DNA of 64,000 nt from a virus. Below are positions 27,763 through 42,403 of this stretch, piece by piece; positions within the stretch are counted from its first letter, which is position 1, and every line of letters starts with the position of its first letter. The position numbers and the translations under genes were made by a program. Location: the UHGV virus genome UHGV-0091736. One strand, written 5' to 3'. The notes beneath the pieces are model-generated. The model had not been told where the DNA came from, ran no database searches, and saw nothing but the letters and a program-made list of their open reading frames with translations.

Positions 27763-27867
27763 AACTACCTCCTATTTGATTTGGCGCACCGTGTAGGACT
27801 CCAACCTACAACCTATTTCTTAGAAGGAAATTGCTCTCTGCAATTGAGCTAACGGCGCTTATTTCAG

Positions 27868-32846: not shown

Positions 32847-33755
32847 TTATGCCGCTTGACGTGCTGCCATAATCTCAGCTGCCTTGCGTAATACTTCTTC
32901 TTCTTCTGCTTTCGCCGCTTGTTCAGTACGGGTAGCAACCGTTGAAGAGATACGACCGCGCAGGTTATCTAACTTCTCCTGCATAGCTGAAACAGCTTTT
33001 TCCATTTCATCAGCATAGGAGTCTAGAGATTCCAGTTCCTTGCTTGATGCGTTCATCAGATAATCATCGGAGATCGCTACCGTTGAAGCCGTAACTTTCT
33101 TGATGAGTGAGTCGAAAGACTTTTTAACCTTCCCAACTTCTTCACTCAAGGCAATAGTGTTATCGCTAGTTGCGCCGTTGCGCTCATCTGCCAGCAATTT
33201 AGATTCAATACGGATGGCATTCAAGCGTTCAACCAAAGCGTAAATATCTTGGTTAAAATCTTCCTTGTTTTTCGCCGGAATTTGCAGGTGTGCCGCCACG
33301 TTGTCATTGCAACCTTTGTAGAAGTTAGGATTATCCACTTCAATTGCACGACCTAAAGCAAAGTTTTCGAAAGCATTTGACCAGCGAGCGCGGTTTTGTT
33401 CCATTTTGGTTTTAATTTGCGCTTCTTTCGCATCTTCTTTCGCTTTCGCTTCACCTTCCAGATTAATCCACTTCTTACGACCGTTCGCCGCATCAGTGTT
33501 AAACTTGATAGGAGTTAAGAAAGTGATCGCGGTAGAAATAACATCCATATCGCGGAAACGTTCAGTTAACAGAAAATCAACAGCCGCTTGTAATACGTCC
33601 AGCTTCTTACCGTTGCTGCGGAAGTGCTGTAAGTGCCCTAACAGGAAGTTAGAAACATCTTGCTTAATCGCTGCGTTATTGCTGCGGATGTTGTTAGCCA
33701 GAGCGTTAAAACCAGATTCGTTAACCAGATTAAAGATTTTAGCCATGATATTCAC
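32847..33755 (-). CDS. hypothetical protein (first gene downstream of long non-coding region)
   Basis: 302 aa helical ORF; SD AAAGGTGA. Confidence 0.55.
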   Translation of the reverse strand: MNIMAKIFNLVNESGFNALANNIRSNNAAIKQDVSNFLLGHLQHFRSNGKKLDVLQAAVDFLLTERFRDMDVISTAITFLTPIKFNTDAANGRKKWINLEGEAKAKEDAKEAQIKTKMEQNRARWSNAFENFALGRAIEVDNPNFYKGCNDNVAAHLQIPAKNKEDFNQDIYALVERLNAIRIESKLLADERNGATSDNTIALSEEVGKVKKSFDSLIKKVTASTVAISDDYLMNASSKELESLDSYADEMEKAVSAMQEKLDNLRGRISSTVATRTEQAAKAEEEEVLRKAAEIMAARQAA

Positions 33756-34570
33756 CTTTCAATTGTAAGGGCGCTATTGCCCCGCTCTCTATGAGCTTGT
33801 TTAAGTCACTATTAACTTAACTCTAACCACTCACTTTTTAAGTAGTTACAGGTAAGCGGGGCGGTCTTATCAGGAGTTAACCTTGCCGCCCCCTTATCCG
33901 TGATGTTTCATCTGGTATCTTTAATTAGTCGCTATAAATAAAGCCGACCTGATAGCGATGATCAATCATCACAATAAGGCAGTGCGTCCGACTCTAATTA
34001 GTTACGTTTATTGTAACCGTCGGCAATATCGTCTACTTTGCTTTCGCTCTCGCCTATCCTTTTGTATTAACTCTCAATCGCTAGTCATCGCCCACTACGG
34101 GATACTATTGCGAAAGAGTCATTAACCGTCTAATATTCCGACGTTTTATATCTTTCAGCGAGTTTACTACATAAACCGACTATGTACTTTCATCATAAGA
34201 CGAATCTCAAGCCGTTCACATCGTAAACGTTCACACTAAACCTTATTGTTAAATAGCAATTTGCCACTTTTTAACCGCTCCCCGCCGCCCTCAATTGGGC
34301 GTTAATTTGTCGGACTTGTCTACCCTGATTAACTTCTTTCACTGTAGCGCCTTGTTAGCGATGACCGCCGCTACCCTTAACCGTGGGCGATTAGCTTAAG
34401 CCTTTGCGTGCACTCAGTGAATCCGTTTATCAGTGGTGACGTTTCCAGTAAGGGATTGCAAGACTGTTTCCTCTGATAGTTTAGAGAGCCTTACATCGTT
34501 TTATCTGGTACGCTTTCCGATGGTTATTATCATCAAGCATATTCAACCGATATAGAAGAACGTTTAAATT

Positions 34571-35056
34571 GTTAAAGAGCGGTAAATCTATCAGCGTGTT
34601 TACTCACGCTATGCAACTGTTAGCCGTTGTCTCGCTTTTCACTTAAGCGGTGATTTGCTTAGTGAGTGCTCATTATGAATCATGTTGTTTTAGCTGTCAA
34701 CCACTTTTTTAATCTTTTTCGTCGTTCCCATTATCGGGAGGATATACCAATCAGCTTTATTTGATTGGAGATTAAGCGGTGATGCTTAACTTATGATTCA
34801 TATTGTTAAAGAGCGGTTACTACATTCACAGCTTAACACATCGTGTTAGCTTGTCAACTCTTTCTATCGTCTTCTTTTTCTCTCTCTCCCTCTGTCTCGC
34901 GTGAATCTATGCGAAAGGGCAAGACGATCAGTTTTTAAAGAGCGGGGATTTTTTAAGTCATCGCTGACTGAGTGCTCATTATGAATCAGGCTTTTTCCGG
35001 TGTCAATACTCTTTTTAAGAATATTTTCACTTTTTAGCCTGATTTTTAAGGAGCGG
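34571..35056. repeat. dispersed direct repeats inside the 1.8-kb non-coding region
   Basis: TTAAAGAGCGG at 34571, 34805, 34935, 35046 (variant TTAAGGAGCGG); GAGTGCTCATTATGAATCA at 34664 and 34970; TTAAGCGGTGAT at about 34643 and 34773. Confidence 0.6.
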
Positions 35057-35495
35057 TTGAAGTCTCTCTCTTCACGGGGTATTGCGTAGTTCCCAACGTT
35101 CTCTGCCACCGCGCTATAGGTAGTGGCTTAGTATCCGACAATCAGACCTTCTTCACTCGGTGAAGCCCGGCCCCTCAATTTACTGTTAGTGAGGCGGTTA
35201 CAGTGTACCTGCTACCGATTCCGTGGTGGCGTCTTACTGCTTGTTGCTTACTGCTTACTACGGGATTCATATTACTATACAGGAAAACCCTGTCAATACC
35301 CTTTTTTCAAATTATTTTTCATCTCACTGTTTTCTAAAGGAATTTATTTTATTGTCAGTAGGACACCGGAAGGAATCAGGAGGTAAAAGAGCGGGAGCGC
35401 GTGATACATCACAGGAAACGGCTTGTAAAGCAGTAATAAGCGTCCTAAAACGCATCACAACGAGCTAAAAGGGAGTAAGGCATACAATCACCTTA

Positions 35496-35526
35496 GAAAA
35501 TAGAAAAGCCTCTTAATGAGGCTTAC
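35496..35526 (-). terminator. rho-independent terminator
   Basis: minus-strand AAGCCTCattaaGAGGCTT followed by TTCTATTTTCT. Confidence 0.55.
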
Positions 35527-35600
35527 AGGAAGGATTTAAAGCATCAGATAGATTATGACCATAGGCATGACCACGGCACAATACAGGAGAAAGATTAAGC

Positions 35601-36053
35601 CTATGGATTTACACATTGACCGTTACCGGATTCTACTTCGTTCATGGACTCATCAAAGAGTGTCAACGATGAGCGCATCAGGTGATCGACCGTGATTTGT
35701 TTACCAGTGGTTTCATTTACTAATAGAATAGTTTTACTATCTGATTGCACATGTTCGAAATCATTTACATGTAAAATAATAACTTTAGGTGACTTTTTAC
35801 CAGTGTCATAATTCTCAATCAAATAGGTGCACTGTAAACCGTCAACCGTAGCAGGGGAAAACGTTGCAGCCCTTACGCTACCCAAAGATGATAGCAGGAC
35901 ACCTAACAGGAGAACAACCAGAAAGAAGCCTACAACCATTTTAACTAAGAATTTAATAAACCACATAGCAATCAACCTTTTAGTTAAAGAACGTAAGAGT
36001 AAAGCATATCGGCGACGAATAGCGCCACTGTAGCAACGAATAAACACCGCCAA
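35601..36053 (-). CDS. early membrane-anchored protein
   Basis: 150 aa; hydrophobic segment FLVKMVVGFFLVVLLLGVLLSSL; start may be internal Met. Confidence 0.5.
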   Translation of the reverse strand: MAVFIRCYSGAIRRRYALLLRSLTKRLIAMWFIKFLVKMVVGFFLVVLLLGVLLSSLGSVRAATFSPATVDGLQCTYLIENYDTGKKSPKVIILHVNDFEHVQSDSKTILLVNETTGKQITVDHLMRSSLTLFDESMNEVESGNGQCVNP

Positions 36054-36059
36054 AAATAA

Positions 36060-36323
36060 TCATTCTTCATCATTGCCTTTACCTTCAAAGAGTGATACTC
36101 TAAGCAATTTAATTTCTTCCAGTGACAGAAGAATCCCACGTTGCGCCAGATAATGACCAGCTTTAACATCATCCATAATTAGAGCGACGGCAGGAAATTC
36201 TACCGCATTAATATTATCGCCACCAACAAACAAGATCAGACACTTGTCAGAATTGTCAGTATATGAGAAATCAATATCCCCATAGTTATGAGTAGGGATA
36301 GTGTAACTATGTTCTTTAGCCAT
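36060..36323 (-). CDS. hypothetical early protein
   Basis: 87 aa ORF. Confidence 0.5.
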   Translation of the reverse strand: MAKEHSYTIPTHNYGDIDFSYTDNSDKCLILFVGGDNINAVEFPAVALIMDDVKAGHYLAQRGILLSLEEIKLLRVSLFEGKGNDEE

Positions 36324-37250: not shown

Positions 37251-37278
37251 ACTATATAATAAAGGAAAAGGCTGTCAA
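37251..37278 (-). promoter_or_regulatory. sigma70-type early promoter (leftward)
   Basis: minus-strand TTGACA, 16-nt spacer, TATAGT; about 45 nt upstream of ATG at 37206. Confidence 0.6.
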
Positions 37279-41479: not shown

Positions 41480-42403
41480 GCTATATTCGCACAGTGCGTC
41501 ACACGTACACTCACAACTAAAGGTCTAGTTACAATTACAGCTACACCAGAGAACGGTTTAACTGAACTGGTAGATAAATTTATGAAAGGTGAAGGGGATG
41601 AGAACACAGGTTCTCTATATTTCCAGAATGCTTCTTGGTGGGATGCTCATGCAGACCTAGGTGGACATATCACTGACCAAGATATAAAAGATATGACTGA
41701 AGGTATTCCAGCGTGGCAGTTAGAGATGCGTTCGAAAGGTATGCCATTGTTAGGAAGTGGTTTGATATATGATGTATCGGATGACACAATTAAATGTGAA
41801 CCATTCGAAATTCCTGATACGTGGAAACGTGTCTGTGCAATTGATATTGGTATTGATCACCCAACTGCTGCTGTTTGGACAGCTTACGATGCAAACACGG
41901 ATACTGTCTATGTTTACGACTCATATAAAGAAGGTGGCTTTACTCCAGTGTATCATGCTCCAGCTATTAATGGTCGTGGTCAGTGGATTCCTGTCATCCT
42001 ACCGCATGATGCGGACAATATTGAGAAAGGTAGTGGATCATCTGTTGCTCAATTCTATAAGAATGCAGGAGTTAATGTACAGAGTGAGACCTTCTACAAC
42101 AAAATTGGAATGGATGGTAAAAAGAACTTCTTTGTAGAACCCGGAATCACAGATATCCGAGAAAGAATGATGAGTGGACGCTTTAAAATCTTTAACACAG
42201 CTGCTAACGCTAAGCTATTCGAAGAGAAAGCTAGATATCACCGCAAGGTTGGTAAGATTATTAAAGAACATGATGACTTAATGGATGCAATGCGCTATTC
42301 AGCGTGCTCTGTTACACATCGTGGTCGCTCTAAGCATGACGTTAGCTACGGAAGTGCTTCTCTGTATGAGGCAAACGTAAGCAGATGGAATCAGAGTTAC
42401 TAA
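41477..42403 (+). CDS. terminase large subunit, 3' exon (ATPase motif III and nuclease domain)
   Basis: TATPENG coupling motif; CAIDIGIDHPTAAVWTAYD...VYVYDSY nuclease-type acidic motifs. Confidence 0.8.
   Translation: MAIFAQCVTRTLTTKGLVTITATPENGLTELVDKFMKGEGDENTGSLYFQNASWWDAHADLGGHITDQDIKDMTEGIPAWQLEMRSKGMPLLGSGLIYDVSDDTIKCEPFEIPDTWKRVCAIDIGIDHPTAAVWTAYDANTDTVYVYDSYKEGGFTPVYHAPAINGRGQWIPVILPHDADNIEKGSGSSVAQFYKNAGVNVQSETFYNKIGMDGKKNFFVEPGITDIRERMMSGRFKIFNTAANAKLFEEKARYHRKVGKIIKEHDDLMDAMRYSACSVTHRGRSKHDVSYGSASLYEANVSRWNQSY

Follow-up and report, generated by a model that had tools for sequence, protein, structure and literature searches.

For the boxA motif of gamma-proteobacteria the consensus GYTCTTTAANA has been published (PMC5725501). 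According to PMC3709561, which cites Savalia 2010, bacteriophage T7 has a boxA behind its early promoters that functions in anti-termination, and the inhibitor of the host RNA polymerase, Gp2, becomes dispensable when this boxA is mutated or when the promoter A3 is weakened. In phage phiEco32 early sigma70 transcription is shut off by the phage factor gp79, which acts on RNA polymerase (PMC12276001). Here, we describe a spacer of 1.8 kb in the virus genome UHGV-0091736, of which one stretch of 64,000 nucleotides was analyzed (the window). The spacer, positions 33756-35600, contains sigma70 promoters that alternate with boxA copies, followed by an untranslated leader RNA with conserved secondary structure, and we propose that it is organized like the leader of a ribosomal RNA (rrn) operon.

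Tandem promoters and boxA copies

The window belongs to a phiEco32-like phage (Gordonclarkvirinae). A megablast search with 33756-35600 retrieved 109 phage records, among them phiEco32, SU10, Paul and related phages with 88-94% identity, and the contig UViG_3300045988_017452 of IMG/VR is 100% identical to the window over 3.2 kb. The region is the spacer between the homologs of the phiEco32 genes 124 and 125, it is free of open reading frames (ORFs), and the genes on either side are transcribed from the minus strand. All functional signals of the spacer are also on the minus strand, while the preliminary description of this DNA had used the plus strand. The spacer is unannotated in phiEco32, SU10 and most deposited relatives. 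In the direction of transcription the order is terminator, P4, boxA4, P3, boxA3, P2, boxA2, P1, boxA1, leader, and gene, with the following features:

35496-35524, minus strand: intrinsic terminator, a stem (35524-35506) followed by a T-run, which closes the upstream early operon (homologs of phiEco32 genes 128-125)
35269-35296, minus strand: predicted promoter P4, TTGACA-16-TAATAT with an A-rich upstream tract, putative start ~35262
35043-35054, minus strand: boxA4, variant GCTCCTTAAAAA, T5->C compared to the consensus; relatives have the consensus GCTCTTTAAAAA at this site
34978-35006, minus strand: promoter P3, TTGACA-17-CATAAT, putative start ~34971, equivalent to SU10 promoter 73996
34932-34943, minus strand: boxA3, GCTCTTTAAAAA, a consensus match
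34830-34857, minus strand: promoter P2, TTGACA-16-TAAGCT with an extended -10 region (TGt), putative start ~34823, equivalent to SU10 promoter 73668
34803-34814, minus strand: boxA2, GCTCTTTAACAA, identical to the 12-nt core of rrn and T7
34772-34789, minus strand: hairpin UUAAGC-AUCACC-GCUUAA, 13 nt downstream of boxA2, with the second TTAAGCGGTGAT copy
34672-34700, minus strand: promoter P1, TTGACA-17-CATAAT, putative start ~34665, equivalent to SU10 promoter 73511
34639-34665, minus strand: 5'-terminal hairpin of the P1 transcript, with the first TTAAGCGGTGAT copy
34592-34611, minus strand: covarying hairpin (helix 5), 11 nt upstream of boxA1 at the position of the rrnB boxB, 3 of 7 pairs compensated
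34569-34580, minus strand: boxA1, GCTCTTTAACAA followed by TTTA, 16 nt in common with the rrnB leader of E. coli, part of the longest run of invariant columns in the alignment of the leader
33744-33762, minus strand: Shine-Dalgarno sequence (SD, AAGGTG) and ATG of the first gene of the long operon, the homolog of phiEco32 gene 124

The repeats listed in the preliminary description were all recovered and can now be assigned. TTAAAGAGCGG is the reverse complement of CCGCTCTTTAA, i.e., boxA; the copies similar to it form a family (D1) at 34569, 34803, 34932, and 35043, and two weaker members are at 34246 and 35381. The two copies of GAGTGCTCATTATGAATCA, 306 nt apart, are the -10 and start regions of P1 and P3 and lie within a 56-nt repeat (D3) at 34657-34712 and 34963-35018, and the two copies of TTAAGCGGTGAT (D13, at 34643 and 34772) each provide the loop and the 3' arm of a repeated hairpin, of which one is 5'-terminal in the P1 transcript and the other follows boxA2 at a distance of 13 nt. 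The minus-strand terminator was likewise found to be real, and a terminator is annotated at the homologous site of SU10. The proposal of a cluster of promoters or regulator-binding sites was essentially right, as two repeat families are cores of tandem sigma70 promoters; the third family, boxA, is a binding site for the host proteins NusB and NusE that would act in the RNA and not in the DNA. The repeat units had been expected to be kept in relatives, and the alternation of promoters and boxA copies was indeed present in all nine fetched relatives (phiEco32, SU10, Paul, NC-B, TH42, EK010, EP335, IMEP8, and SU7), which represent three genera, even where the upstream half of the spacer could not be aligned with the window. 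It was also found in NJ01 and in metagenomic relatives.

The boxA copies are strongly clustered and strand-specific. Only exact consensus matches were counted as boxA, so that the copies at 35054 (T5->C) and 34257 (C4->A) were excluded and those at 34580, 34814, and 34943 remained. The window contains four matches to the consensus GYTCTTTAANA, compared to 0.45 expected, and none of 100 shuffled sequences reached four; three of the four matches are in this region. The exact sequence CGCTCTTTAA is present three times in the 64-kb window, always on the minus strand and within 373 nt (34572-34944). In 15 relatives the 1.15-kb cluster contains 58 consensus boxA copies in sense and none in antisense orientation, versus three in the remaining 90 kb that were fetched. 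The copies are situated at +9 to +208 downstream of the putative starts, one per promoter. BoxA1 and its flank have 16 nt in common with the E. coli rrnB leader (GCTCTTTAACAATTTA), and both boxA1 and boxA2 are identical to the 12-nt core at T7 positions 813-824, downstream of A1-A3. When a profile of the leader was compared with the rrnB locus and T7-like loci using nhmmer, boxA was the only similarity, and the best match in the rrnB locus, which is boxA, was not significant (E-value 0.42).

A few further matches lie outside of this order. The fourth consensus match, GTTCTTTAATA at 42259-42269 on the minus strand, is far from the cluster and probably due to chance, because 0.45 matches are expected in the window. 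A degenerate boxA-like sequence, GCTCTTTTACC, is found at 35375-35396 between the terminator and P4, where a further weak promoter may be present. In NJ01, IMEP8, and two metagenomic contigs a consensus boxA precedes the topmost detected promoter, and therefore the number of cassettes varies. A lambda-type nut site was considered and rejected: only boxA2 has a nearby downstream hairpin (loop AUCACC), and the hairpin of boxA1 precedes it. No N-like protein was identified, although no search aimed at one was made.

Three of the four promoters have been published before. P1, P2, and P3 are near-identical to early sigma70 promoters of SU10 that were tabulated 'between CDS120 and CDS121', and according to the SU10 paper the spacer has three sigma70 promoters, 'like phiEco32'. 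P4 is predicted here from its sequence; it is absent from the SU10 promoter table and is kept in phiEco32, SU10, Paul, EK010, and EP335. A promoter scan yielded 11 of 12 matches at 34700 and at 35006, and 10 of 12 at 35296. In an alignment of P1 from 10 genomes the -35 and -10 hexamers are invariant and the spacer between them is variable.

Three observations concern the promoters and their surroundings. The 15 nt AAAAAGAGTATTGAC at 35007-35021, overlapping and upstream of the -35 region of P3, are identical to T7 positions 452-466 upstream of A1. A short tandem repeat of CAGTAAG (3.9 copies, sense strand, 35233-35259) is located at the 5' end of the P4 transcript. A strong promoter, TTGACA-16-TATAGT at 37251-37278, drives the small right-end operon; this operon has no boxA, and its first gene starts ~40 nt past the promoter.

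The structured leader RNA

From the putative P1 start (~34665) to the ATG at 33746 the transcript would be untranslated for ~920 nt. The absence of a convincing ORF, claimed before, held true: there is none of at least 30 amino acids on the minus strand between 33756 and 34864, and comparison with the relatives revealed no conserved coding frame, i.e., no sense-strand ORF of more than 23 amino acids common to 10 genomes. The start of the gene-free stretch, previously given as 33756, had to be corrected to ~33747, at the ATG of the gene 124 homolog. No tRNA or tmRNA was found within the region. The leader is composed of the following elements:

34270-34568, minus strand: Domain I, multi-helix, closed by a long-range helix
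34246-34269, minus strand: boxA-like GCTATTTAACAA (C4->A, off consensus) and inter-domain hairpin, the second most conserved block of the leader
33971-34249, minus strand: Domain II, helices 22-32, including helices with 6 of 6 and 7 of 13 covarying pairs
33768-33970, minus strand: seven 3' hairpins
33892-33858, minus strand: one of these 3' hairpins, a covarying stem with a nearly invariant 21-nt loop, CAAGGUUAACUCCUGAUAAGA
33857-33815, minus strand: 16-bp hairpin (I8), close to the start codon

The secondary structure of the leader is conserved. RNAalifold predicted 270 pairs for the 10 genomes, 73 of which have compensatory double changes, and 98.4% of the leader cells were paired in the counting test. 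The number of compensated pairs was 32±4 in shuffled alignments, none of 500 reached 73, and it was only 3-8 in slid controls, in which the partners were moved by 1-3 columns. A structure predicted from the window sequence alone also had 65 compensated pairs, compared to 4-9 in slid controls. The fold is that of the sense strand, with 309 G·U cells versus 10 A·C cells, a consensus energy of -270 kcal/mol (antisense -189 kcal/mol), and a single-sequence z-score of -6.4 (antisense -2.7). In the block of GCTATTTAACAA between the two domains 28 of 30 columns are invariant; this element may be an analog of the rrn spacer boxA or may be purely structural. The preliminary description had offered small non-coding RNAs as one candidate. 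A non-coding RNA is indeed predicted, albeit a contiguous structured leader of ~0.9 kb instead of small transcripts.

The leader appears to be a large structured RNA that has not been described before. Rfam contained no match at the gathering thresholds, and only noise was retrieved with E-values up to 10. No homolog outside of the subfamily was found in the phage collection, IMG/VR, the JGI metagenomes, and 100,044 bacterial genomes. Using the 21-nt loop as a probe, only close relatives were detected, three in IMG/VR and seven in the metagenomes, and none in the 100,044 bacterial genomes. Enrichment of k-mers in the leader (GGTTAA and similar) was not significant when multiple testing was allowed for. 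The leader may be a stabilizing or processing 5' untranslated region (UTR), it may control the translation of gene 124, or it may be an RNA with a function of its own.

The leader sequences of the relatives are mosaic. In an alignment of 16 genomes (A5) whole hairpins occur in two to three alternative versions that reassort between lineages, e.g., in columns 520-550 and 820-900, which suggests recombination at helix boundaries. One locus (L020) that seemed to be a variant without promoters and boxA turned out to be a mis-assembled short contig. Just upstream of the SD lies an invariant 'anti-boxA', TAGAGAGCGGGG (33791-33780, sense strand), with complementarity to boxA1 and to boxA3. Its partner in both fold predictions is boxA1, so that the whole leader is enclosed, which recalls the leader-trailer helix of rrn operons. 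This long-range pairing is not claimed here, because neither side varies and because TH42 has a disrupted adjacent helix with no compensating change.

The proposed early transcription unit and its alternatives

Tandem promoters, a hairpin with boxA, and a long structured untranslated RNA follow one another as in an rrn leader. We consider it likely that this is an rrn-like early unit, in which a Nus-modified host RNA polymerase resists Rho across the structured leader and into the early operon. The terminator would end the small right-end operon, and the four tandem sigma70 promoters, from P4 to P1, would recruit host RNA polymerase. In the nascent RNA boxA would bind the host proteins NusB and NusE (S10), and the complex, together with NusA, NusG, and SuhB, would turn RNA polymerase into a fast and Rho-resistant enzyme, as in rrn operons and T7. 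The modified polymerase would cross ~0.9 kb of folded untranslated RNA and move on into the long operon of small early genes, and the later shut-off of sigma70 transcription by gp79 would parallel the action of T7 Gp2. Antitermination would be needed because this ~0.9 kb of RNA, otherwise open to Rho, precedes the first start codon.

Several observations weigh against such a unit. BoxA4 deviates from the consensus (T5->C), and the fifth, boxA-like element is off at position 4. One boxA per promoter is more than protection against Rho should require, as T7 uses just one. The distant relative of the C3 morphotype, Salmonella phage 7-11, has an ORF-free early leader of ~1 kb (L027, 88864-89916) that contains no boxA and is not similar to the leader described here. 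By equilibrium folding, boxA1 and boxA4 would be paired most of the time, with probabilities of being unpaired below 0.1. For the emerging boxA2 and boxA3 these probabilities are 0.4-0.8, and that of boxA3 drops to ~0.13-0.15 after 15-40 nt more have been transcribed. However, the validated boxA of T7 scores equally low in equilibrium folding, and thus this metric does not discriminate.

Of the other explanations, the most probable is that processing sets the leader free and that it then works in trans as a large non-coding RNA, e.g., as a protein sponge or an anti-defense RNA, and is not only a 5' UTR. The architecture is extensive for a UTR, with two domains of ~300 nt, seven hairpins, and a near-invariant 21-nt loop on a covarying stem. 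T7 early RNAs contain RNase III sites, and the hairpin of 16 bp near the start codon (33857-33815) is a possible site of this kind. Furthermore, the rrn-like Nus complex is known as a chaperone for the folding of long RNAs (PMC8632103). On the other hand, there is neither a terminator nor a mapped processing site between the leader and the mRNA, and the RNA has no homolog outside of the subfamily and no Rfam family. We regard a release of the leader with a function in trans as possible, but as less likely than not.

A bolder version joins this idea with the rrn-like unit: Gordonclarkvirinae phages would mimic an rrn operon, with several promoter-boxA cassettes that load an antitermination and RNA chaperone complex to make and fold a functional non-coding RNA of ~0.9 kb and of a new class, and with a boxA array that perhaps also drains Nus factors from the rRNA synthesis of the host. 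Such an RNA could, for example, be a sponge for host factors, an anti-defense RNA, or a platform for processing that sets the timing of early gene expression. We put this forward tentatively, as less likely than not.

It might also be argued that the boxA array is mainly a decoy, which titrates NusB, NusE, and SuhB off the rrn operons and aids host shut-off, with antitermination in cis being secondary. With three to five boxA copies per transcript and four strong promoters the array exceeds the need in cis, and Friedman and colleagues reportedly found in 1990 that overexpressed boxA RNA competes for NusB. However, T7 has just one boxA, and duplication of a promoter-boxA cassette (D2, D3) explains the copy number without a decoy role. 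A decoy would be compatible with Rho-resistant transcription in cis and would not replace it as the explanation, and we judge it unlikely to be the main function.

It is quite improbable that the CCGCTCTTTAA repeats are DNA operators for a regulator that silences the early promoters, and not boxA in RNA. Each copy is indeed near a promoter, and the phage is known to shut off early sigma70 transcription (PMC12276001). However, the known shut-off factor, gp79, targets RNA polymerase and not DNA, and the motif is asymmetric, has only one orientation, and lies downstream of the start at variable positions from +9 to +208. In addition, 16 nt are identical to the boxA of the host rrnB leader, the 12-nt core is identical to the T7 boxA, and T7-like phages, which are unrelated, have this motif downstream of their early promoters as well.

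An origin of replication, with the dispersed repeats as iterons bound by an initiator, had been another candidate of the preliminary description, and we regard it as highly improbable. A gene-free stretch with repeated motifs of 11-14 nt and hairpins is in line with an origin, and we know of no replication origin described for this phage group. The spacings of 323, 234, 129, 111, and 338 bp are, however, irregular, Tandem Repeats Finder detected only the 7-nt repeat with 3.9 copies and no tandem array, and the region contains no DnaA box (TTWTNCACA). The GC content is 0.37-0.46 throughout, without an AT-rich block, and the skew switch is elsewhere, at ~37.7 kb near the genome ends. Moreover, the motif is strand-specific (58:0) and equals a known RNA signal, the other repeats are promoter cores, and the covariation, which includes G·U pairs, suggests that selection acts on RNA. 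Overlooked small proteins are regarded as equally improbable. Some relatives annotate short hypothetical ORFs in the spacer (one in Paul, eight in pEC-N1203-2Af.1), but the two short conserved ORFs of the sense strand have TTG starts and no SD, and substitutions track base-pair compensation and not codon structure.

The rrn-like early unit combines known kinds of elements, promoters and boxA, whose arrangement in several cassettes appears to be new, as does the leader RNA. No literature linking boxA with phiEco32 or Kuravirus was found in a search that did not cover the primary phiEco32 papers, so that an earlier notice is possible. In a 2022 paper the group that characterized phiEco32 makes no mention of boxA and describes the strategy by which the relative 7-11 achieves antitermination as undefined.

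Genomic setting and comparison with known systems

Between P4 and boxA4 the spacer carries an additional element:

35033-35246, minus strand: structured RNA module

This module has 82-90% identity to the early leader of Kayfunavirus (T7-like) phages, where it also sits between a host-type promoter and boxA, and more distant matches were found in PPWS1 (Kotilavirus) and Buco (Bucovirus). No other Kuravirus genome of the phage collection contains it. Its consensus fold has 33 pairs, 10 of them compensated. The module has a length of ~170-210 nt and an invariant loop, CUCACUAAGAGUAAAUUGAG (loci L004, L005, L006, L025, L007, L026, and L036), and it is not in Rfam. A scan of IMG/VR with the module core yielded mostly chance matches and one new true homolog. 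Its presence in one Kuravirus and in the leaders of unrelated podophages points to horizontal exchange of a leader element, possibly via the flanking promoter and boxA.

The neighboring genes offer few clues. PHROG and Pfam gave nothing usable on the function of the flanking genes, and a tblastn search with the first downstream gene retrieved matches confined to the same group of E. coli phages, no farther relatives. Two small ORFs, 35601-35966 (121 amino acids) and 36060-36323 (87 amino acids), are labeled 'terminase' and 'polymerase' in records of the phiEco32 family; the 121-amino-acid ORF is a 'terminase' also according to PHROG, and neither has Pfam support. These labels look like an inherited mis-annotation. 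A tRNA-Arg gene (anticodon TCT) is located at 27782-27858 on the minus strand and has also been reported for SU10 and SU7. The sign of the GC skew changes at ~37.7 kb, where the genome ends of phiEco32 map, and therefore the window is circularly permuted relative to phiEco32.

The analysis turns a conserved stretch of 1.8 kb, which is unannotated in most of ~110 coliphage genomes, many of them therapy candidates, into an annotated control region. If the proposed antitermination is true, host Nus factors serve not only lambdoid phages and T7 but also a third group, lytic phages unrelated to these, and there would be a rationale why phiEco32 needs gp79 to silence the host polymerase later, comparable to Gp2 and boxA in T7. 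The multi-cassette layout is an unusual natural design for a long untranslated RNA in E. coli and might be useful as an expression module that is both strong and Rho-proof. The leader is among the larger covariation-supported structured RNAs of a well-studied host-phage system and is experimentally tractable, and the Kayfunavirus-type module indicates that RNA elements of early leaders are exchanged between unrelated podophages.

One of the closest known systems is that of T7. Both phages have tandem strong sigma70 promoters near the genome end with the early genes, an identical boxA core (GCTCTTTAACAA), an untranslated leader ahead of the first gene (gene 0.3 in T7), and a later inhibition of the host RNA polymerase, by Gp2 in T7 and by gp79 here; P3 and A1 even have 15 nt upstream of the -35 region in common. 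However, T7 has a single boxA after A1, A2, and A3, in contrast to one per promoter in three to five cassettes here. The leader from the last promoter has ~0.9 kb and is supported by covariation, compared to ~175-430 nt in T7, and the phage family is unrelated to T7 and has no phage RNA polymerase. The lambda nut system also couples a phage boxA with host Nus factors for processive early antitermination, which is predicted here, but the boxA is of the rrn type and not of the lambda type (CGCTCTTA), and a boxB-like hairpin at a fixed downstream distance is lacking.

Two further groups are comparable in part. The boxA elements of CRISPR arrays and of the suhB 5' UTR have the same consensus and precede a long untranslated RNA, which is protected against Rho (PMC7665894, PMC5725501); however, they are single chromosomal copies, in contrast to a promoter-coupled array on a lytic phage. 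GOLLD and ROOL are, like the leader, phage-encoded RNAs of more than 500 nt with many helices. In contrast to them, the leader is contiguous with an mRNA as its 5' part, has no Rfam match, and has a narrow distribution, as it is restricted to Gordonclarkvirinae of E. coli.

The layout also resembles that of the leaders of the E. coli rrn operons, in which P1 and P2 are followed by the boxB hairpin, boxA, boxC, and the 16S rRNA. There, too, strong promoters are arranged in tandem and have A/T-rich upstream tracts, a hairpin immediately precedes boxA, and a long, highly structured untranslated RNA lies downstream, and the 16 nt around boxA are common with rrnB. Rrn operons have a spacer boxA, and a boxA-like element, here off consensus, likewise lies between the two structured domains of the phage leader. 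The differences are that the phage RNA is not a ribosomal RNA, that the similarity does not extend beyond boxA, and that protein-coding genes follow.

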